Shown here: positions 54,192 through 64,000 of the stretch, piece after piece
How positions within the stretch are numbered: position 1 is the stretch's first letter
How the letters are laid out: each line of letters opens with the position of its first letter
Origin: Eubacteriales bacterium
Lineage (GTDB): Bacteria > Bacillota > Clostridia > Oscillospirales > CAG-382
DNA: 64,000 bases
NCBI GenBank assembly: GCA_045538555.1
Contig: JAZSRP010000043.1
Location: forward strand, 9,616 to 73,615
Reading direction: 5' to 3'
Translations under genes and position numbers: made by a program
Notes under the pieces: generated by a model
Databases searched by the model: none
Told to the model about the DNA's origin: nothing
The model's input: the letters and a program-made list of their open reading frames with translations, nothing else

Positions 54192-55136
54192 TTACTGGTT
54201 ATTATCCGAAAAATTGGGGGAGGAAGATTCCTGTTGAGGAACAAACTGCTGTGCAGTCCCGCCAAAATTGTTTGTATCAGTCCCGCCGGAGATAACGGGG
54301 CAGGCAAGAATCGCTTTTGAGAATTCTGAAATAAAGGATGCAAGTATAAAATAGAAGAATATGTCAAAAATGTTACCGATAAAGGAAACCACGGTAGATG
54401 CATTAAAAACATTTTGACCATCTGCAGGGGCACCGATAAATCCGATGATAGCAAGTATAGTCCCAATTATCATGATAGTGGCAATCGCTCTATAAAAACC
54501 AACGATATATCCGGCTTTCTTAAATGTTGCCACACCAAGCTCCACTTGATTGCGGATTGCCTTGATCTGTCCGGAAATTTTGTGAAGTGCAATAATATAC
54601 AAAACAACAAAAATGAGAATTACAACAAAGACAACTGTGAGGATATTGTATACCAGTTCAAAGAGATCAATAACGCCGGTTGTACCAAAAAAAGTCACAA
54701 AGATCTCTTTGGGAATCTCTGTATACTTGTCAATTGTTGAAAAGATGATAAGAAAAATAAGAAGAGCCACACCAATGATGTACAATATTACATTCATAAA
54801 CACAGGGTAAAAACGAAGGTATCCAACGTTTTTTACTGTAACGTTTTTCTTTAGTGCATATGCTCCAAAAACGGTAAAAGCCAAAAACACAATAGGAAGA
54901 AGTGCACCGATCAAGGTTGGTACATCAAATTCCTGAGATGTGAGCGTGGAAATAGCAGAATAGATGGTCATTCCAAGAGAGATAGCCAACAAAATGCATA
55001 CAGTAGACCATTTTTTAGAAGAGAAGTAATATTTTATGCAGTCAAGGCGAGGGCTTGACGAAACAACATTGCATCCGCAATTTGTGCAAAAAGATGCATT
55101 GCTGTCCAATGGGGCGCCACAGTTTTTACAAAACAT
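54192..55136 (-). CDS. Zinc-ribbon domain membrane protein
   Basis: N-terminal CKNCGAPL..FCTNCG zinc ribbon, followed by about 6 TM helices. AAGGAG RBS. Confidence 0.65.
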   Translation of the reverse strand: MFCKNCGAPLDSNASFCTNCGCNVVSSSPRLDCIKYYFSSKKWSTVCILLAISLGMTIYSAISTLTSQEFDVPTLIGALLPIVFLAFTVFGAYALKKNVTVKNVGYLRFYPVFMNVILYIIGVALLIFLIIFSTIDKYTEIPKEIFVTFFGTTGVIDLFELVYNILTVVFVVILIFVVLYIIALHKISGQIKAIRNQVELGVATFKKAGYIVGFYRAIATIMIIGTILAIIGFIGAPADGQNVFNASTVVSFIGNIFDIFFYFILASFISEFSKAILACPVISGGTDTNNFGGTAQQFVPQQESSSPNFSDNNQ

Positions 55137-55222
55137 AATTGTACTCCTTTAATTATTTTAAATATATTATATGTTTATATATAAATTTTGTCAAGATTTA
55201 ATATGATTTGTTTCAATTGTTT

Positions 55223-55258
55223 AAAAAAATCAAGGGCTTCCGTTTAACGGGAAGCCCT
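55223..55258 (-). terminator. Rho-independent terminator after GH20 copy B
   Basis: Read on the minus strand: agggcttcccg-ttaaa-cgggaagccct, then tgattttttt. Confidence 0.8.
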
Positions 55259-55270
55259 AACAAATTTATT

Positions 55271-57898
55271 TTACCAGACGGTAACAGTACAGGAAAGTGA
55301 ATCTGATGAACGCTCTCGTGTTTCGGTATCAAAGATATAAATAGTGTATGTACGGCGGCCAAGATTCTGCGCCTGGAATTTTATTTGATACATATCGCGG
55401 TTTTGGTTGGAATTGAAAAATATCCATTCTTCAACATAAACTCTGTTGTTCAGGTCATCGTAAATACGAATATTCTCTTTCAACTCTACAAAATCATGAC
55501 CTTTCTCAACACCTACTGCAAATATAAAGTATTTTCCAAGATTTGCAGTATCGGTTCTTGAGGCGACGCTGAACAAATAATTGTTTTCGCTGACATCAGA
55601 GAGGAGCACAAGCTCGTCGCTAAGGCGTGTAAGCCGCGAGAAGTAGTTGTCAACCTTTGCTTGCTCAATATCTGCGTCAGAGTTCAAATATGCCTCTGCC
55701 TCAACTGCAAGCTGTTTGTATGCGTTGTATGACTCCGTAGTATAAGAAGCAGAATTGCAGTTTTCAAACAGATTCAGAGCATCATTCAGATCAGATGCAT
55801 CATATACGGGCTTATTTTCAAGAGAAGCAATTGCAGCATTGATAGCATCAAGCGCTTTGTTTACATCTGACTGAGAAGGATCGCCATTGAGAATCTCTCT
55901 GCCTGCATCAACAGCAGCAGTATATTTACCAAAGCTCTCTTTTGTATATGCAAATCTGTTTGTATCATAGTTGCTGTCATATTCTTCAATTGCGGCAATG
56001 AGTGCTGTGTAATCAGCGCCATATGTTATTGTCGCTTCTTTCAAATTGGCGGGTGCATTGCCAAGTGAAGAAATATCTGCTGCATAGTCTGTGTATGATT
56101 GGGAGGTGTTGGCGGTAGTTTCCCAGCACTTTGCCGCATTTGCACGGATGGGACCAATAGCAGTTGACATTATATAATCTTCTGTATACTGATTTGGTAT
56201 ATCACACCAGATTGCATATGCGCCGCCGGTTACATTGCTTCTGTATTGATTTGGAATTGTTGTCGGTGTGGATGATCCGGCAGGAATATCAATATAGGGA
56301 TTCCACTCGTTGTAGATCTTTTGAGCAGTGGCTCTCGGGCCGTTGTATGCGTTCAAAACATAATAATTGTAATCCTGGAGGTAATTGACAACATTATATT
56401 TTTCTGCATACTGTGAAAGCGTGTTGAAATATGGACTGCCCCATGGATTTGTCCAATAATTGATAGAAAATCCTGAGTTGAGTTGTACGACTCCATTCCA
56501 TCCGGTGTCTGTAGAACGCATTACGTCATCATTCCACATTCTGATATCATCAAAGCCAAGATCTTCTACAATGCCGTAAACGGTGTTCATGAAATAAAGG
56601 AAGGCATCATAGGCAACGGCATTATTGTTGCCGGTGATAGATTTTGCATAGCTGTCCCAGTGGGGGAGTGCCTGCCATCTGTTATATCCTCCGACAGTAC
56701 CCCATCCCAAAAGTTCATCGCCGCCGATATCAAACTTTGTGCAACCGAGCTCTCTGAAGAAAGTACCATATGCCCTGTAGAGTTCAAAAACAAAATCACG
56801 CGCCTCTTGACTTGCGATATCAATACATCTTGAGTATTGATCCGCTGTTCCACCGGCCGCACTTGACCCCTCTACAATGTAATATCTGTTGTTATAGTAA
56901 AAATAATTTCCGATACCAAAATTTGTATTTCCAAAGGTTGCTCCGGAAACGTTGTAGTTTGGGTCATCGGCATAGTTTGAACTGCCGGAATGGTACTTTG
57001 AAACCTTGCTGCTGTTCTTGTTGTACTCGTGGATAAGGTAATTTAAATGTCCGGGGGAATCAAAAGAGGGCACTATCTCAACGTGATACAATTTTGCAAC
57101 CTCAGCAATTTCACGCATGTCAGATACAGTCAAAACGCTATTGTCGGTAGGAACATTTATCGCTTGTGTGCACATTGCTCCATCACGACCCGCAACCTCT
57201 GCAATCCATTTGTAATCATCACTGAAATATGATTCATCAAGTGCGATACCAAGTCCCATTTCTTCAGAGAAATGGAGATAAAGTGTATTCATATTTGACC
57301 ATGAGATCTCACGAATCATTTCCTTGATCCAGTTGGGTGTAAAATACTTTCGACCGCAATCCAACGAAAGGCCGCGCTCCATCATATCGGGAGAATCGGT
57401 ATATGTCTGACCTACGATAAGGTCATCCCCAAGTATCAACTGGCGGATAACATATCTACAGCCATAAAAAAGTCCGTCAGCATCGGATGCTTTTACAACA
57501 ATTCTTCCGCCGACAGGTACTTCAATTGAAAATCCCTGAGCAGTAATGTTGTGAGCTGATGAAAGTGAAAGAACAATATCGTTTTCACCAATGCTATCTG
57601 CATCATCGCAATACTTGATAGGAAGAACTTGTGATGTACATCCCTTTGACTCAAGCTCTGATGCAAAGAGCTTTATTTGTTCTGCCAGATCAGTATCAGA
57701 TTTGTCAGAGATAGCAGTTTCAAGCCACACGATTGAAGTTTCGTTTGTGACTTTCCATTGAATACCCTGAGGCGAAACACCAAGGGAACCTGTGCTTGCA
57801 GCAATTGCACAGATGTTGGTGAATGAAAGCATGCAAAGCAGCGTCAACAACAGAGAAATACATCTGTTTGTGTTTGATTGGGGGTTTTGCTTCTTCAT
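55271..57898 (-). CDS. Secreted GH20 beta-N-acetylhexosaminidase-like enzyme with FIVAR-like helical repeats and C-terminal Ig-like domain (copy B)
   Basis: Signal peptide. GH20 barrel start RGLSLDCGRKYF, then SFDSPGHLNY and the catalytic pair in FDIGGDELLGW. Start set at the MKKQ Met (57898), after GAAAGGA, by analogy with copy A; the track start is 57916. Confidence 0.85.
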   Translation of the reverse strand: MKKQNPQSNTNRCISLLLTLLCMLSFTNICAIAASTGSLGVSPQGIQWKVTNETSIVWLETAISDKSDTDLAEQIKLFASELESKGCTSQVLPIKYCDDADSIGENDIVLSLSSAHNITAQGFSIEVPVGGRIVVKASDADGLFYGCRYVIRQLILGDDLIVGQTYTDSPDMMERGLSLDCGRKYFTPNWIKEMIREISWSNMNTLYLHFSEEMGLGIALDESYFSDDYKWIAEVAGRDGAMCTQAINVPTDNSVLTVSDMREIAEVAKLYHVEIVPSFDSPGHLNYLIHEYNKNSSKVSKYHSGSSNYADDPNYNVSGATFGNTNFGIGNYFYYNNRYYIVEGSSAAGGTADQYSRCIDIASQEARDFVFELYRAYGTFFRELGCTKFDIGGDELLGWGTVGGYNRWQALPHWDSYAKSITGNNNAVAYDAFLYFMNTVYGIVEDLGFDDIRMWNDDVMRSTDTGWNGVVQLNSGFSINYWTNPWGSPYFNTLSQYAEKYNVVNYLQDYNYYVLNAYNGPRATAQKIYNEWNPYIDIPAGSSTPTTIPNQYRSNVTGGAYAIWCDIPNQYTEDYIMSTAIGPIRANAAKCWETTANTSQSYTDYAADISSLGNAPANLKEATITYGADYTALIAAIEEYDSNYDTNRFAYTKESFGKYTAAVDAGREILNGDPSQSDVNKALDAINAAIASLENKPVYDASDLNDALNLFENCNSASYTTESYNAYKQLAVEAEAYLNSDADIEQAKVDNYFSRLTRLSDELVLLSDVSENNYLFSVASRTDTANLGKYFIFAVGVEKGHDFVELKENIRIYDDLNNRVYVEEWIFFNSNQNRDMYQIKFQAQNLGRRTYTIYIFDTETRERSSDSLSCTVTVW

Positions 57899-57999
57899 GA
57901 TAGTTCCTTTCATCATTTGTGCGTAACTATCAAAAGCAATTATTGAGGAATTGAATACAACAAATACAGCTTTTTGTTATATCAAATATCCTCAGGATA

Positions 58000-58040: not shown

Positions 58041-58069
58041 ATTATATACAATTTTACTAGATTTGTCAA
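58041..58069 (-). promoter_or_regulatory. Consensus sigma-A promoter for GH20 copy B
   Basis: Read on the minus strand: TTGACA (58069-58064), exactly 17 nt, then TATAAT (58046-58041). Confidence 0.65.
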
Positions 58070-58081
58070 GTATTTCATTGA

Positions 58082-58858
58082 TTAACCAAGCGCAACATCA
58101 AGCAGCATCATAACAGAAAAACCTATCGCAACACTCAAAGAGGCCACATGATCATTTTGGTCAGAATTTATATCCGGTATAAGATCTGATATTACCACAT
58201 ACACCATGGCTCCTGCTGCAAATGACAGCACGTAGGGAAGTGCAAAGCCCACAACAGACGTAATAGCTATTGTAATAATTGCAGAAATCGGTTCAACAAT
58301 TCCTGAAATCAATCCGACAAATAATGCTTTTTGTTTTGAAACGCCTTCTCCTGCAAGCGGCAAAGAAATCATTGCTCCCTCCGGAAAATTTTGGACTGTT
58401 ATACCCAAAACAAGTGCAAAAACCTCCGCTTCCGACACCAACGTGTGTGCTTCCAGCAATGCAGAAAGTACCACACCCACCGCCATTCCTTCAGGAATAT
58501 TGTGCAATGTAACTGCAAGGAACATTAAAAATGACTTTTTTCCAGTGTGCCTACTCCATCTTGCAGATTGCATTTTTTTCAATATATCATCAATTAATAT
58601 TAAAAATAACACTCCTACCAAAAATCCTGTAACGGCAGGAAACCATTTTGCAAAGCTGTTGTTTTCTGATAAATCAATTGCGGGTATCAAAAGTGACCAC
58701 ACTGATGCTGCAAGCATTACTCCCGATGCAATTCCCACAAGTGCTTTTTGTGTTATTTTATCCGCATCTTTTTTCAATACAAAAACCGTCAAAGCACCAA
58801 AAGAAGTACCAAAAAACGGCAATATAATTCCAAATATTATTTTTGCAGATTCACACAT
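58082..58858 (-). CDS. ZIP-family divalent metal transporter (ZupT-like)
   Basis: 8-TM protein with the HNIPEGMAVG and QNFPEG signature pair. AAAGGAG RBS. Confidence 0.85.
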   Translation of the reverse strand: MCESAKIIFGIILPFFGTSFGALTVFVLKKDADKITQKALVGIASGVMLAASVWSLLIPAIDLSENNSFAKWFPAVTGFLVGVLFLILIDDILKKMQSARWSRHTGKKSFLMFLAVTLHNIPEGMAVGVVLSALLEAHTLVSEAEVFALVLGITVQNFPEGAMISLPLAGEGVSKQKALFVGLISGIVEPISAIITIAITSVVGFALPYVLSFAAGAMVYVVISDLIPDINSDQNDHVASLSVAIGFSVMMLLDVALG

Positions 58859-58908: not shown

Positions 58909-58941
58909 AAAAAAAGAGTGATGCAGTCAATAGCATCACTC
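58909..58941 (-). terminator. Rho-independent terminator after the radical SAM gene
   Basis: Read on the minus strand: gagtgatgc-tattgact-gcatcactc followed by T7. Confidence 0.8.
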
Positions 58942-58947
58942 AAAATT

Positions 58948-60042
58948 TTATGATTTTGCAGCATTTAAAAATGATTTGCAATAAGTTTTTATATATTTGC
59001 ACATCTCTGGCGCAAGTACAGATGGATCACCGTTGCGAGCAAACCCGATCGCAGCACATGAAGGGCAGATCTTTTTGTATTGACAATCTGTACAATCTTT
59101 TGGCAAAAACATGCTTTCTGTACGTTTTGTAATCTCGTTCCATGCATTTTGAAAACCGTATTTCAAGGGTTCTGACCAAAATCCGTTGATCATTCCGCAT
59201 GGAAGCATCAACCCATCCCAGGTGATCCAAAATGCGCCTTTTCCTGCCATGCATGACGATGCAGAACATTCAACCGGGTCATCAGTAAGCTCCGGTTCTT
59301 CAGCTTCGGTGATATTTGTCAACACTTCGATCCGTCTTTGCTTCTGCTCATTGTTCATGGTCAAAATATCAAACTTGGATGACAAACAGCCCATTTCTTC
59401 AGGAGAAAGAAAACAAGAATCCTCTGAGCTTCCGCATTTTCTCACCGGTGGAAAAATATAGCTTGCGGTGCGAATAGGGATGTTGTGTTCTTTTGAAAAA
59501 GCAACAAGATCAAAAATATCGTTTTTGTTATAATGCGTAAACGTTGTATTTATAATAACGTTAAAACCGCTGTTTTTGAGTTTTAGGATCCCCTCAATGG
59601 ATTTTTTGTATCCGGAATTATTTTGGCATAGGGAAGTATATGTCTCTTCACTTGAGCCGTATATAGTCACGTTTATACGCTCAGGTGGGTGGTTGTGAAA
59701 ACAATCAAGTATCTCCTGGGTTATGCAAGATGCATTTGTATTTATGGAAATAATAACTCCCATTTTTGCCATTTCTGTATAAATATAGGAAAAATCTTTT
59801 CTCAACAAGGGTTCTCCGCCGGTCATGAGAAGATAAATCATTCCTTTATTTACAGCTTGTCTGCCAATATCGATCCATTGCGCGGCAGACAATTCACGCG
59901 ACATGGCGTGTGTATCGTTTTCATCAGAATGGATATAGCACATTTTACAGTCAAAATTACATCTTGCAGTCAGCTCAAATGTTCCGCTGACAGGAATTTT
60001 GTTGTAAGCACCTTTTGCAAAGAGATACTTTTTCATGTTCAT
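58948..60042 (-). CDS. Radical SAM enzyme with C-terminal SPASM domain (anSME/peptide-maturase-like)
   Basis: CxxxCxxC (CNFDCKMCY) begins at about residue 28, with GGEPLL downstream. The Cys-rich C-terminus is CSASSCMAG..PCG..CTDCQYKKICPSCAA..C. There is no room for an N-terminal RRE/PqqD-like domain. Confidence 0.85.
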   Translation of the reverse strand: MNMKKYLFAKGAYNKIPVSGTFELTARCNFDCKMCYIHSDENDTHAMSRELSAAQWIDIGRQAVNKGMIYLLMTGGEPLLRKDFSYIYTEMAKMGVIISINTNASCITQEILDCFHNHPPERINVTIYGSSEETYTSLCQNNSGYKKSIEGILKLKNSGFNVIINTTFTHYNKNDIFDLVAFSKEHNIPIRTASYIFPPVRKCGSSEDSCFLSPEEMGCLSSKFDILTMNNEQKQRRIEVLTNITEAEEPELTDDPVECSASSCMAGKGAFWITWDGLMLPCGMINGFWSEPLKYGFQNAWNEITKRTESMFLPKDCTDCQYKKICPSCAAIGFARNGDPSVLAPEMCKYIKTYCKSFLNAAKS

Positions 60043-60063
60043 AGCATCAACCCGTTTTCTATT

Positions 60064-60099
60064 GAAAAATTACGGGCTTCCATCTTGAGGGAAGCCCGT
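60064..60099 (-). terminator. Terminator-like hairpin after GH20 copy A
   Basis: Read on the minus strand: acgggcttcc-ctcaagat-ggaagcccgt, then aattttt. The hairpin is a paralog of the one after copy B. Confidence 0.6.
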
Positions 60100-60110
60100 T
60101 ATTTGTAGTT

Positions 60111-62645
60111 TTACCAAACATTAACAGTACAGGAGAGAGAATCAGCAGAACGTGTGATTCCGTCCTTGTCAAGGATATAAATAGTATAGGTGCGTGTTCC
60201 GAGATGCTGTGCCTGGAATTTGATCTGATACATATCGCGGCTGTCGTTTGTATTGAAGAAAAGCATATCCTCTATATAAACTCTGTTGTTGAGATCGTCA
60301 TAGATACGGATTTCAGAGAACTCATATCCTTTGTTGATACCCACAGCAAATATAAAGTATTTACCAAGATTTGCAGTAGAGGTTCTGGACGCAACACTGA
60401 ACACGTAGTCATTTTCGCTGACATTGGAAGTGAGCACAAGCTCTTCACTCAGACGGAAAAGTCTTGAGTAATAGCTGTCAACTCTGGTCTGCTCAATATC
60501 AGCATCAGAGCTGATATATGCTTCAGCTTCAACAGCAAGCTGTTTGTATGCGTTGTATGATTCAGCAGTATATGCAGAAGAGTTACATGCTTTGTACTCA
60601 GCAAGAGCACTCTTGAGATATGACGCATCATACTCCGGCTTGTTTTCAAGAGCATCGATTGCAGCATTGATAGCATCAACAGCTTTGTTTACATCAGACT
60701 GAGAAGGTTCACCATTGAGAAGTGCTCTGCCTGCCTCAACAGCTGCAGTATAATTGCCAAAGCTCTCTGTTGTATATGCAAATCTGTTTGTTTCGTAGTT
60801 GTTGTCATATACTTCAATAGCAGCAACAAGAGCAGCAGTATCAACACCAAAAGTGATGGTTGCTTCTTTGAGATTTGAAGGAGCACTGCCAAGAGTTGTC
60901 ATTCTGGAAGCAAAAGCAGAATAAGTCTCATAAGAATTTGCACTGGTATTCCAACATTTTGCAGCATTTGCGCGGATAGGATCAATTGCACCGGATTTTA
61001 CCTGTGCTTCAGTATGGAGCGAGGGATGGTCACACCAAATAGCATAAGCACCGCCCAAAACATTTGATCTGTAAGAGCTGCTTACAGATGTTCCGCTTGT
61101 ATCCTGTGTATAAGGAGTCCAGCTGTCATAAATTGTTTGGGCCGAAACTTTGGCCCCGTTTGTGCCGGTATTGACTATATAGTAGTTGTAATCATCAAGG
61201 AAATTGATGATTTTGTATGATTTTGCATAAGTATCAATTGTATTTTGACCGGATGTCCAATAGTTGATTCTGATATTGGAATTAAGAGTTACTGCCTGCT
61301 GCCAACCTGTATCAGAGGAGCGGAGTGCATCGTCATTCCACATTCTGATATCGTTGTAACCGAGATCGACGAGCAGACTATATACACTATTGAGATAATA
61401 GATAAATCCGTCATAAGCAACCACATTGGTTTTTCCGGTTACAGACTTAGCATACTCTTTCCAGTGGTCAAGCTGCTTCCATTTTGTAACAGAGCTGGAG
61501 GGTACAGCAGAGCCCCAACCCAAAAGCTCGTCACCACCCAGGTCAAACTTTGTACAACCAATGGATCTGAAAAAGTTTCCATATGCTGTGTAAAGCTCAT
61601 AAGCAAAGTTTCTTGCTTCTTCACTTGCAATATTGATACCTCTTGAATAAGAAGTATTGCGTGAACCTTTTACAAGAGTAGTATAATTGTTGTATTTGAA
61701 ATAGTTACCGATACCAAATGTACCGTTGTCCTTATTGTAATCGGATGCAGAAGCGTAGCCATATTGCTTATTGTATTCGTGTACCAGATAGTTCATGTGA
61801 CCGGGGGAGTCAAATGAAGGAACGATCTCAACATGATACAGCTTTGCAACCTCTGCAATAGCGATAATATCGGATTTTGTCAGATATCTGTCATCGTCAG
61901 CAATTACAGCTCCTACACACATTGTGCCGTCACGGCCTGCAACGTTGGCAATCCATTTATAACCTTCTGAAAAATCGGATTCATCAAGCTTGATGCCAAG
62001 TCCCATCTCCTCTGAGAAATGGAGATAGAGAGTGTTCATATTGGACCAGGATATCTCACGTATCATATCCTTGATCCAGTCGGGAGTAAAATATTTTCTT
62101 GCACAGTCGAGGAAAAGTCCGCGCTCAAGAGTGTCGGGGGAATCGGTATATGTCTGACCGACAATAAGCTTGGTTCCAAGAATAAGCTGCTGAATAACAT
62201 ATCTGCAACCGTAAAAGAGGCCGTCTGCATCAGATGCTTTTACTACAATTTTTCCACCTACAGGAACTTCAACTATAAATCCCTGAGTGGTGATGTTGTG
62301 AGAAGATGAAAGATTGAGAACGATATCATTTGTTCCTGCGTTGCTGATATCATCACCGTATTTGATGGGAAGCACACTTGAGGTACAGCCTTTTGCTTCA
62401 AGCTCGGATGCAAAAAGCTTTACTTGATCAGCAAGTTCAGTATTTGATTTGTCTGAATCAGCAGTTTCGAGCCAAAATATCTCTGTATCGTTTGTAACGA
62501 CCCATTGAACTCCGCTGGGGGATACTCCAAGTGAACCCGTGCTTGCAGCAATAGCACAGATATTTGTAAACGAGAGCACACAAAGCAGCATCAGCACAAG
62601 CGCAAAAGATCTGCTTGTTTTAGAATAGGAACATTGCTTCTTCAT
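60111..62645 (-). CDS. Secreted GH20 beta-N-acetylhexosaminidase-like enzyme with FIVAR-like repeats and C-terminal Ig-like domain (copy A)
   Basis: Same architecture as copy B: RGLFLDCARKYF, SFDSPGHMNY, FDLGGDELLGW. GAAAGGAAG RBS. Confidence 0.85.
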   Translation of the reverse strand: MKKQCSYSKTSRSFALVLMLLCVLSFTNICAIAASTGSLGVSPSGVQWVVTNDTEIFWLETADSDKSNTELADQVKLFASELEAKGCTSSVLPIKYGDDISNAGTNDIVLNLSSSHNITTQGFIVEVPVGGKIVVKASDADGLFYGCRYVIQQLILGTKLIVGQTYTDSPDTLERGLFLDCARKYFTPDWIKDMIREISWSNMNTLYLHFSEEMGLGIKLDESDFSEGYKWIANVAGRDGTMCVGAVIADDDRYLTKSDIIAIAEVAKLYHVEIVPSFDSPGHMNYLVHEYNKQYGYASASDYNKDNGTFGIGNYFKYNNYTTLVKGSRNTSYSRGINIASEEARNFAYELYTAYGNFFRSIGCTKFDLGGDELLGWGSAVPSSSVTKWKQLDHWKEYAKSVTGKTNVVAYDGFIYYLNSVYSLLVDLGYNDIRMWNDDALRSSDTGWQQAVTLNSNIRINYWTSGQNTIDTYAKSYKIINFLDDYNYYIVNTGTNGAKVSAQTIYDSWTPYTQDTSGTSVSSSYRSNVLGGAYAIWCDHPSLHTEAQVKSGAIDPIRANAAKCWNTSANSYETYSAFASRMTTLGSAPSNLKEATITFGVDTAALVAAIEVYDNNYETNRFAYTTESFGNYTAAVEAGRALLNGEPSQSDVNKAVDAINAAIDALENKPEYDASYLKSALAEYKACNSSAYTAESYNAYKQLAVEAEAYISSDADIEQTRVDSYYSRLFRLSEELVLTSNVSENDYVFSVASRTSTANLGKYFIFAVGINKGYEFSEIRIYDDLNNRVYIEDMLFFNTNDSRDMYQIKFQAQHLGTRTYTIYILDKDGITRSADSLSCTVNVW

Positions 62646-62675
62646 AAATTCTTCCTTTCAATTTTTTTGTTTCTG

Positions 62676-63503
62676 TCACTGATTATTTAACCAATCAGAT
62701 AGTGCAACAGATGCAGAGTGGGATCTAACACAAGCAAACCTGACAATATCAGTAACAGCAACAATTTCTTGGATTGTATTTAATACATTTTCATTCAACA
62801 AACGGTCTGATTCAAATCTGATGCACTCAGAATAAAGCGTCAAAAAGGCATCGCGCTTTGTCATTTTACACACAGCGTTTTTTTCACTCTTTTCAACTCG
62901 TGCAACAACCTTTACGTTTGCCGAAATATCTCTGTATATGCCTGATGTACCTGCAATCGGACTGCCGTAAGCGATACATTTTCCATCATTGACAGCAAGT
63001 ATCACTTTGTCACCGTTGAGCATCTCCGAGCCAAATTTTTCTTGCCATATTTGTGCCTGAGTTGATTTTCCGCCGCCGGAGGGGGCGCAAAAAATGATTG
63101 CTTCACCGGCATCAATAACGCATGAAGAATGAAGTACAACTCGTCCGTGTTTGGCAAAAAAACGCTCAAGATTTAATAGCAAATTCCAGTTTGCATTACT
63201 TGTTATTGCATTTTTAAAAGATGTTGGAACAAACAGATAATAAAGGGTATTGTCCTCAAATGATTCTGAAAGAATGATTTTTGAACCGTCGTTGAGGGGA
63301 AATTCTTTGATAACCCTAACTCTTTGGTCATTTTTACAAAAATATTCACCCACAAAAATCTCAAATACGCCCTGGTGGGTCGCCTCAGATGCTTCCTCCC
63401 TTAAAAAAGGGAGGAAGCAATCCGGGAAATCGATTTTTACGGGTGATTTGATTCTGATATTCAGACCTGCGATACAAAAATCAAAATTATATTTGCCTGT
63501 CAC
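62676..63503 (-). CDS. HPr-kinase-like P-loop protein (HprK C-terminal-domain-like)
   Basis: LHSSCVIDAGEAIIFCAPSGGGKSTQAQIW..LNGDKVIL resembles the HprK catalytic-domain pattern HG..v...g.gvLi.G.SG.GKSe.a..L...g..LvaDD. A GTG at 63503 overlaps the upstream stop (GTGA); the track TTG start at 63539 would overlap by 40 nt. Confidence 0.6.
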   Translation of the reverse strand: MTGKYNFDFCIAGLNIRIKSPVKIDFPDCFLPFLREEASEATHQGVFEIFVGEYFCKNDQRVRVIKEFPLNDGSKIILSESFEDNTLYYLFVPTSFKNAITSNANWNLLLNLERFFAKHGRVVLHSSCVIDAGEAIIFCAPSGGGKSTQAQIWQEKFGSEMLNGDKVILAVNDGKCIAYGSPIAGTSGIYRDISANVKVVARVEKSEKNAVCKMTKRDAFLTLYSECIRFESDRLLNENVLNTIQEIVAVTDIVRFACVRSHSASVALSDWLNNQ

Positions 63504-63721
63504 GAAGTAAACGCAACCTGAACGTTGGAGTGGTAGCAAATCTCAGTGCCCATAATTCTTCCATCAGCATCAGGGAGAATATAGCAAGTGCTATCTGCAA
63601 AAACGCCAAGGTTTACAAGTGATTTCACATCATCAAAATCTGCTGTACAGTTGAAAGCGATGGGGGAGTCAAGCTCAAGTGACTCGGTGGCAATCATGGG
63701 CTTGGTGTATTGTTTTTTCAT
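63500..63721 (-). CDS. Small acidic Cys-containing protein (73 aa), candidate modified-peptide precursor
   Basis: AAGGAGGG RBS 7 nt before the ATG. The sequence is MKKQYTKPMIATESLELDSPIAFNCTADFDDVKSLVNLGVFADSTCYILPDADGRIMGTEICYHSNVQVAFTS. It has no signal peptide, and its stop is coupled to the next gene. Confidence 0.6.
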   Translation of the reverse strand: MKKQYTKPMIATESLELDSPIAFNCTADFDDVKSLVNLGVFADSTCYILPDADGRIMGTEICYHSNVQVAFTS

Positions 63722-63738: not shown

Positions 63739-64000
63739 TTAATCGACAAACACGTCAAGCTTGTTGACGGAAGCGTTTCCGTTTGCGTCAAATGCTCTGA
63801 CAGTGTAGGTTTGTCCTGCGGTGAGAGAAATCTCTGCAACAAATGTCACGGTGTCATCACCAACAGACTTTGTGGATCCAAGGATCTCTACTTCATTGCC
63901 AAACATATCAAGCACGGAGATCTTCTCAGCACCTGCGGTAGTAACAACAGTGAGAGCACCGTCTGCATTTGCAGAAAGTACAGTCAGCTCATCGTTGACA
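63739..64000 (-). CDS. 3' end of a gene extending beyond the window; C-terminal Ig-like domain
   Basis: My own translation of the minus strand gives ...VNDELTVLSANADGALTVVTTAGAEKISVLDMFGNEVEILGSTKSVGDDTVTFVAEISLTAGQTYTVRAFDANGNASVNKLDVFVD, with the stop at 63741-63739. It is not in the ORF track because no start lies inside the window. Confidence 0.6.
   Translation of the reverse strand, partial: VNDELTVLSANADGALTVVTTAGAEKISVLDMFGNEVEILGSTKSVGDDTVTFVAEISLTAGQTYTVRAFDANGNASVNKLDVFVD

Follow-up and report, generated by a model that had tools for sequence, protein, structure and literature searches.

The window analysed here, i.e. the whole 64,000-nt stretch of contig JAZSRP010000043.1 (Eubacteriales bacterium), carries on its minus strand a gene for a 364-aa radical S-adenosylmethionine (rSAM) protein with a SPASM domain, and on the simplest reading this gene closes a single operon of six genes and ca. 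9.9 kb. A 73-aa Cys-containing peptide encoded in the same cassette is most likely the substrate of the rSAM protein, because of synteny, the conservation of the peptide, the precursors found with distant relatives, the phylogeny, and a chaperone apparently provided in trans. The operon model with the peptide as rSAM substrate is given a probability of about 0.7. Features of the cassette and its surroundings are as follows, positions beyond 64,000 being window-equivalent coordinates.

68373-68765 (window-equivalent), beyond the window and upstream of the giant gene: PqqD chaperone gene (Pfam PqqD, E 7.4e-12)
63739-64000, minus strand: C-terminal end of the giant PA14 protein ("BIG"), secreted, 1528 aa, running to window-equivalent 68325 (PA14, E 2e-9)
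63500-63721, minus strand: 73-aa precursor-like peptide with a YxxP leader, C25/C46/C62 and C-terminal Ser73
62676-63503, minus strand: HPr-kinase-like (ScmC-like) P-loop protein (HprK_rel_A, E 5.5e-5)
60111-62645, minus strand: GH20-A, secreted beta-N-acetylhexosaminidase or lacto-N-biosidase-like protein of 844 aa (Glyco_hydro_20, E 1.9e-27, and FIVAR)
60072-60099, minus strand: GC-rich stem-loop in the 68-nt GH20-A/rSAM spacer, with a 10-bp stem, 7 GC pairs and a weak U-tract
58948-60042, minus strand: rSAM/SPASM maturase of 364 aa, predicted final gene of the operon; ten cluster Cys invariant, no NCBIfam equivalog
58909-58941, minus strand: intrinsic terminator predicted to close the operon, a 9-bp stem (58941-58916) followed by TTTTTTT
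55271-57916, minus strand: GH20-B, related to GH20-A as an old paralogue (66% aa identity) and served by a consensus promoter of its own

The peptide gene in a conserved cassette

The clade of the window consisted of the window and seven other independent contigs, with rSAM identities of 46-66%. The cassette order in this clade is PqqD, giant secreted protein, 73-83-aa open reading frame (ORF), ScmC/HPr-kinase-like protein, GH20 and rSAM. The complete order was found in the window (extended with locus L018), L072, L073, L074 and L075, and the portion from the giant protein to rSAM in L014/15 and L016/17, which stop within the giant gene. The flanking genes are unrelated from locus to locus. 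Product sizes across the clade were 736-1767 aa for the giant protein (often with PA14), 268-289 aa for the kinase-like protein and 716-1066 aa for GH20.

When rSAM homologues of at least 34% identity were considered, a ScmC-like gene was present in 39 of 45 loci, PqqD in 35 and the peptide family in 29, and several of the remaining loci end at contig edges. Peptide homologues are found next to homologues of this rSAM in ca. 30 loci. The rSAM tree follows cassette architecture and precursor type, with the loci carrying a separate GH20 gene forming one clade (support 100/100) whose relatives are a peptide-plus-giant-protein clade and a short-tandem-precursor clade; label clustering on the tree went far beyond that of shuffled labels (0 of 500 shuffles). 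An earlier, sequence-only reading of this DNA had proposed the peptide as the client of the rSAM protein, and the ca. 30 adjoining loci and the tree make this likely. Orthologs of the rSAM gene stand beside homologues of the 73-aa ORF, the opposite of what that reading had named as speaking against its proposal, i.e. orthologs placed consistently next to another substrate gene.

The Cys-containing ORF at 63500-63721, which had been pointed out from the letters alone, is real and is preceded by an AAGGAGG ribosome-binding site. Residues Y5, P8, C25, C46, C62 and S73 were invariant in 25 aligned peptides, and position 10 was I, V or L. When 1.84 billion representative proteins were searched with a profile, 2070 peptide clusters (50% identity) were returned at E ≤ 1e-3, of which 594 also passed E ≤ 1e-10. 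In the best 150 of the ca. 2070 clusters, from which the signature counts were taken, length ranged from 72 to 93 aa, YxxP was present in 149 and the terminal Ser column reached 99%; four Cys occurred in 130 of these 150, the clade of the window being without the second one.

The peptide matched no Pfam or NCBIfam family, and ten leader-sharing peptides queried against NCBIfam and Pfam gave only non-significant N-terminal matches, i.e. tryglysin (E 0.05) and the paeninodin family (E 0.13). A compact fold was not seen in the AlphaFold2 (AF2) model of the 73-aa peptide (predicted local distance difference test score, pLDDT, 59.5), and its sequence has no signal peptide. Context look-ups starting from the peptide (P0127, P0130) led to contigs of only 0.7-3 kb and were uninformative.

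Relatives of the rSAM protein at 26-37% identity have one to four tandem small ORFs alongside, with an MKKxYxxPx leader and differing Cys-bearing cores. Tandem small ORFs with a common leader and variable cores are the classical signature of precursors of peptides that are ribosomally synthesised and modified post-translationally (RiPPs). In L002, L046, L048, L050, L051, L054, L059 and L061-L066, the rSAM gene is followed by 1-4 tandem precursors of 45-75 aa with a common leader and variable Cys cores, and the HprK-like protein of these loci is 350-400 aa long. In a sister clade, a gene for a 227-247-aa lipoprotein or membrane-anchored protein of no known family lies between the peptide and kinase-like genes (L023:8472-9155, L024:8296-9036, L027:8400-9140); it is absent in the clade of the window.

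Two loci labelled Bacteroidaceae, L034 and L051, have rSAM genes nearly identical to those of the Clostridia loci L039 and L050 (branch lengths 0.01-0.03), and these bins are probably contaminated. No paper was found on this cassette, its peptide family or its rSAM and kinase-like families, and literature searches on ScmC/SynChlorMet and on rSAM together with HprK and glycoside hydrolase gave nothing relevant.

Proposed transcription unit and putative modifying enzymes

All six genes point the same way and are spaced by 47, 17, -4, 30 and 68 nt in the order from PqqD to rSAM; the kinase-like gene probably starts with the GTG at 63503, overlapping the stop codon of the peptide gene (GTGA). Upstream of PqqD, at window-equivalent ~68840-68868, a sequence resembling a promoter with an extended -10 element (TTGAAT-17-TGnTATAAT) was identified. 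Past the window end, a gene for an AI-2E family transporter (L018:5705-7033, window-equivalent 69089-70417) is divergent from the operon promoter region, and AI-2E homologues are also found near the cassette in L045 and L070. The six-gene cassette of the clade loci includes no leader peptidase, protease, exporter or immunity gene, and the AI-2E family transporter may be the missing exporter.

The rSAM gene had been described from sequence as a unit of its own, bracketed by hairpins upstream and downstream. Both stems are real, and strong stem-loops are also present 3′ of the rSAM stop codon in L013, L016 and L075. The isolation of the gene did not hold: the ca. 30 nt between the hairpin at 60072-60099 and the rSAM start codon contain no promoter-like site, and a GC-rich hairpin follows GH20 in seven of the eight clade loci, usually with little or no U-tract and with the rSAM Shine-Dalgarno sequence directly after it. 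Since the stretch from the hairpin to the rSAM ribosome-binding site is too short to hold a promoter, the post-GH20 hairpin is placed within the predicted operon, where it would be an attenuator or an mRNA-stabilising element.

The GH20-A/rSAM spacer folds with ca. -23 kcal/mol, and the minus-strand tail after the 60099-60072 stem reads AATTTTTCAA. Terminator-like sites numbered 16 in the region against 7.2 ± 2.7 in shuffles. In the proposed scheme, the stem-loop after GH20-A would lower or buffer the expression of the distal rSAM gene relative to the abundant secreted GH20; the rSAM gene would not be a separate transcription unit, and the hairpin plus T7 at 58909-58941 would be the real terminator.

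Within the rSAM protein, residues 23-180 match Pfam Radical_SAM (E 2e-21), which is the sole Pfam match of the protein. The CX3CX2C motif for the [4Fe-4S] cluster that cleaves SAM, C28/C32/C35, was unchanged across an alignment of 178 homologues, in which the SPASM residues C264, C282, C317, C320, C326, C329 and C348 were likewise invariant. Their arrangement, C264-x12-G277-x4-C282, C317-x2-C320-x5-C326-x2-C329 and C348, fits the reference SPASM motif for two auxiliary clusters, CX9-15GX4C ... CX2CX5CX2-3C ... C. The AF2 model (pLDDT 90.8) has its radical SAM core beginning at about residue 19, and the protein is therefore without an N-terminal fused RiPP recognition element (RRE). Pfam, the alignment and the model agree with the first description of this 364-aa protein, i.e. 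CxxxCxxC near residue 28, no N-terminal RRE and a Cys-rich SPASM C-terminus.

Placement against characterised SPASM enzymes was based on scores of hidden Markov models and on fold search. In Foldseek the closest structures were those of the peptide maturases SuiB (E 2e-13), SkfB and PqqE, with anSME at a TM-score of 0.69 and the sugar-modifying BlsE and DesII also listed; by sequence, the closest solved protein was SkfB (E 1.9e-13). No equivalog cut-off was reached in NCBIfam, where AhbD ranked first (96 bits, the cut-off being 500) and NirJ2 and MoaA came next. The peptide-maturase models (SkfB, WgkB, GeoRSP, ScmE, PqqE, ACGX, PapB) scored 58-71 bits against cut-offs of 300-650, and neither the anSME model nor QhpD was among the top 25 NCBIfam matches. 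A large protein collection contained 1165 rSAM homologues, the best 120 all having at least 45% identity and originating mostly from Clostridia/Oscillospiraceae metagenomes.

The ranking of AhbD, NirJ2 and MoaA, the hairpins on both sides of the gene and the appearance of BlsE and DesII in the fold search would be consistent with an unrelated, separately transcribed gene for a cofactor/heme enzyme (AhbD/NirJ-like) or a sugar-modifying enzyme lying between two terminators. This explanation is very improbable, as the AhbD score is far from its cut-off, rSAM stays syntenic with the genes for the peptide, ScmC and PqqD across dozens of loci with unrelated flanks, and the hairpin-to-start interval has no promoter. 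A housekeeping cofactor role is disfavoured by the low family scores, by the absence of the gene from 24 genomes of the same genus, which is unexpected for such an enzyme, and by its restricted occurrence, only 13 of 400 genomes of the class having an rSAM homologue at E ≤ 1e-40. GC content over the cassette shows no anomaly, and so gives no signal of horizontal transfer there.

In the kinase-like protein H137, the P-loop residues G157-K158-S159 and D177 are invariant, with only one Asp so conserved. Its best PDB profile match is HPr kinase, with a weak E-value of 0.013, and its homologues carry PF27840 ScmC. In the distant locus L002, the extra C-terminal part of the kinase-like protein is a fused PqqD domain. 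The best NCBIfam matches of the PqqD protein of the cassette were Bacillota lasso-type PqqD chaperones and ScmD. The RRE missing from the rSAM protein would be supplied in trans by the PqqD protein, whose stand-alone gene lies ca. 8 kb upstream, past the window end and so out of sight of the sequence-only reading.

Discrete RREs are known to recognise a [Y/W]xxPx[L/V/I/F/A] leader motif (PMC13381572), and the leader of the aligned peptides fits this motif, with a discrete PqqD-like RRE present in the cassette. The recently described Bacillota family LPP combines an HprK-like kinase with a YxxP leader and a stand-alone RRE (PMC13381572). In lasso clusters of the paeninodin type, the C-terminal Ser of the precursor, which is strictly conserved, is (poly)phosphorylated by HprK-like kinases (PMC9266682); by this precedent, which the invariant C-terminal Ser fits, Ser73 would be phosphorylated by the HPr-kinase-like protein.

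According to the proposed mechanism, the stand-alone PqqD protein would bind the Y5-x-x-P8-x-I leader of the 73-aa peptide and present the peptide to both modifying enzymes. The rSAM protein without an RRE would employ 5′-deoxyadenosyl radical chemistry and two auxiliary Fe-S clusters, and would introduce one or more intramolecular crosslinks into the core. Thioethers formed from the three invariant Cys appear the most likely type of crosslink, although this specific chemistry is put forward only tentatively. The kinase-like protein would phosphorylate the invariant C-terminal Ser. The analysis itself showed the content, order and conservation of the genes, the motifs for cofactor binding, the conserved leader, Cys and Ser positions and the co-evolution of rSAM with precursor type; which residues are modified, by what chemistry, whether Ser is phosphorylated and how the peptide relates to the GH20 and PA14 proteins we infer.

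Elsewhere in the genome, outside the window, a second ScmC/HprK-like gene (C34:161253-165627; 238 aa, E 2e-40 against the ScmC profile built here) adjoins a CPBP/Rce1-like intramembrane protease gene (Pfam, E 8e-19) and a gene whose secreted product has 859 aa; the site may represent another peptide-modification locus, without rSAM. A second stand-alone PqqD gene (C12:55718-56519; Pfam, E 4e-18) is followed by a 157-aa ORF with the sequence "GISMTPMLKNG". The likeness of this ORF to a signal peptidase was seen by eye only and Pfam gave no match, so this identification was rejected; the two genes could represent an LPP-type pair of RRE and leader peptidase acting in trans.

Two small ORFs with a Y-x-x-P leader and without Cys were found on a further contig (C15:30412-31997 and C15:22385-22507), reading MKKYYSEPELNII...PPDWWD and MKYTAPEFEVV...NSWWN. 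One of them adjoins an NTP_transf_5 (PF14907) gene, of which the genome has three. Several YxxP-leader systems may thus coexist in the genome, in which case the issue of RRE discrimination studied in PMC13381572 arises.

GH20 enzymes and giant secreted proteins

GH20-A shows the catalytic motif GGDE, and its best PDB matches were GH20 hexosaminidases and lacto-N-biosidases. The sequence-only reading had regarded it as an inserted copy separating the rSAM gene from the peptide; this had to be revised, since all members of the clade have a GH20 gene in this place, after the kinase-like gene and before rSAM, and the extra copy is GH20-B. The closest relative, L013 (66% identity), has GH20, rSAM, ZIP and Zn-ribbon protein genes and no second GH20, and the supernumerary copy of the window is therefore GH20-B, not GH20-A. 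The duplicated region (60065-62660 versus 55225-57912) includes the 3′ hairpin, which was copied along with GH20 (60065-60110 matching 55225-55270); with 68-75% nucleotide identity and 66% aa identity, the duplication is old.

Perfect 12/12 sigma-70 consensus promoters were found on the minus strand at 58041-58069, upstream of GH20-B, and at 55166-55194, upstream of the Zn-ribbon gene. A ZIP/ZupT-like transporter (58082-58858) and a Zn-ribbon membrane protein (54192-55136) are encoded after rSAM in the window, likewise in L013, and a Zn-ribbon protein is also encoded after the cassette in L035.

In the sister clade, a separate GH20 gene is absent between the kinase-like gene and rSAM, and nine loci have a GH20-like match elsewhere: as the N-terminal domain of a giant protein of 1535-1806 aa in seven, as a separate upstream gene in L025, and within a 1781-aa protein downstream of rSAM in L053. 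The giants listed as bearing GH20 are those of L022, L027, L028, L034, L035, L036, L039 and L053. The C-terminal 500-600 aa of the sister-clade giants are homologous to residues 930-1520 of the PA14 protein of the window, whose last ca. 600 aa form the portion that is conserved in the wider family. Pfam has no family for this C-terminal module, and a sequence match in PDB is lacking for the protein as a whole. A common C-terminal tail of the PA14 and GH20 proteins was considered and dropped, as BLAST with the last 120 aa gave only GH20-GH20 and BIG-BIG matches.

With GH20 separate in the clade of the window and fused or nearby in the sister clade, the association of module and GH20 predates the split, and on the compared loci GH20 is a conserved member of the cassette, not a chance insertion. 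Options for this link are that the peptide is a partner of the enzymes, in analogy to QhpC, that a glycan-bearing phosphopeptide is processed by GH20, or that the genes are co-regulated. For the second option, the hexosylated phospho-Ser of pseudomycoidin (PMC9266682) offers a comparison.

The GH20 link also bears on the question of what the rSAM protein modifies. If, like anSME, it matured a protein, with GH20 or the giant PA14 protein as its client, then the peptide, PqqD and kinase-like genes would form a separate module. A GH20 or GH20-bearing giant accompanies rSAM in both clades, the anSME structure aligns to the rSAM model, and three Cys of the catalytic domain are conserved in eight clade GH20 proteins, which is not diagnostic of a modification site. 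Such a maturase is nevertheless quite improbable and is disfavoured because related rSAM clades that lack GH20 and the giant protein retain ScmC, PqqD and small YxxP peptides. Moreover, GH20 and the giant protein have Sec signal peptides for export, so that a cytoplasmic Fe-S enzyme would have limited access to them, and PqqD chaperones bind leader peptides. No sulfatase client had been visible in the first reading, and PF00884 has no match in the entire 99%-complete genome. With no anSME-type family among the top NCBIfam matches either, the role of an anSME itself was excluded.

A refinement that keeps the peptide as the rSAM substrate would make the modified peptide a stoichiometric partner of the secreted GH20/PA14 enzymes, i.e. 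a subunit, cofactor carrier, inhibitor or anchor, similarly to QhpC. The depth of the GH20 link, which survives gene fission and fusion, the cassette without protease, exporter and immunity gene, and the conservation of the peptide along its entire length point in this direction. It appears unlikely all the same, as the peptide has an unstructured model and no signal peptide, a physical interaction of the peptide with GH20 or PA14 is only presumed, and other clades of the rSAM family resemble ordinary multi-precursor RiPP clusters. A reading of similarly low probability is that an undescribed class of ca. 80-aa ribosomal peptides in gut Clostridia, with a YxxP leader, SPASM-dependent crosslinks and a phosphorylated C-terminal Ser, serves secreted GH20 hexosaminidases and giant glycan-binding proteins of the PA14 type as an obligate partner, be it subunit, activator, inhibitor or cell-surface anchor.

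Several points weigh against the operon with the peptide as rSAM substrate. The peptide is conserved over its full length in the clade (up to 63% identity), which goes beyond the typical hypervariable cores of RiPPs, and it could in view of this work as a small protein partner. The peptides of the clade have three Cys only, and the wider family four. The scores of the rSAM, kinase-like and PqqD proteins are far under the curated cut-offs, so that there is no characterised equivalog from which a function could be carried over. GH20 and the giant protein are adjacent in a conserved way, and one of these may be modified too; the cassette has no leader peptidase or exporter that would act on the peptide, and transcript read-through of the hairpin at 60072-60099 is presumed.

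Comparison with known systems

The rSAM, peptide and kinase-like families are large, with more than 1000 rSAM clusters and ca. 2070 peptide clusters in public metagenomes, mostly of gut and rumen Clostridia, and no member of these families reaches a curated cut-off. The system is a variation on known RiPP themes, in a predicted six-gene operon of gut Clostridia that is conserved and unstudied. It would join two RiPP toolkits so far studied apart, i.e. the module of YxxP leader, discrete RRE and HprK kinase, and SPASM radical crosslinking, in a combined kit firmly tied to secreted GH20 glycosidases. Should the peptide modulate or anchor the GH20 enzymes, gut bacteria would have a new route to control glycan foraging, and an obligate partnership would link RiPP chemistry directly to the degradation of host or mucin glycans. 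If the peptide is a free product, it would represent a new and abundant class of microbiome RiPPs. Either outcome offers a concrete substrate-enzyme pair open to testing.

The closest named system is SynChlorMet (SCM), computationally defined in TIGRFAMs/NCBIfam and consisting of ScmC (HprK-like), ScmD (PqqD-like) and ScmE/ScmF (rSAM/SPASM); to our knowledge the cassette is uncharacterised. Both systems include an HPr-kinase-like protein, a stand-alone PqqD, an RRE-less rSAM/SPASM protein and an adjoining small peptide gene. ScmC (PF27840/TIGR04249) is matched by homologues of the kinase-like protein, ScmD by the PqqD protein and ScmE by the rSAM protein (E 2.9e-18), whereas all cut-offs are missed: ScmE 65.9 versus 400, ScmF 53 versus 400, ScmC 22-25 versus 125 and ScmD 23-26 versus 100. 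Unlike SynChlorMet, the cassette has one rSAM gene instead of two, another precursor family, and conserved GH20 and giant secreted proteins, and it occurs in gut Clostridia.

The rSAM protein resembles SkfB, AlbA, CteB, PapB, SuiB and PqqE in combining a radical SAM core and a SPASM domain, with two auxiliary-cluster motifs, with a Cys-containing putative substrate peptide, and PqqE also uses a separate PqqD. SkfB, CteB and SuiB have a fused RRE. Differently from sactipeptide and ranthipeptide synthases, the rSAM protein lacks a fused N-terminal RRE and is accompanied by a kinase partner and GH20 genes, and its scores were below the maturase cut-offs (SkfB 71 versus 300, PapB 58 versus 340, PqqE 64 versus 381, StsB 53 versus 625).

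A conceptual parallel, with no sequence relationship detected, is QhpD/QhpC. QhpD, an rSAM/SPASM enzyme, crosslinks the Cys residues of the ca. 80-aa QhpC, a subunit of the exported quinohemoprotein amine dehydrogenase encoded in the same operon. Here, quinoprotein and heme subunits are missing, and the partner enzymes are glycoside hydrolases.

With paeninodin (PadeA/PadeB1/PadeK) and LPP (LppA/LppB/LppK), i.e. the linear polyphosphorylated peptides described by Popov et al. 2026 (PMC13381572), the cassette shares the [Y/W]xxPx[L/V/I] leader, a discrete PqqD-like RRE and, as a putative kinase, an HprK-like protein that keeps the conserved His, Lys and Asp, and with the paeninodin precursors (PMC9266682) the strictly conserved C-terminal Ser. 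In contrast to these, no lasso cyclase, B2 protease, SpI-like peptidase, NTP transferase or MsbA exporter is encoded in the six-gene cassette of any clade locus; instead, it comprises an rSAM/SPASM protein, Cys-containing cores, precursors of ca. 80 aa, and GH20 and giant genes within the predicted operon. By these likenesses, the system looks like a hybrid in which the leader-RRE-kinase module of paeninodin and LPP is combined with a SPASM crosslinking enzyme.

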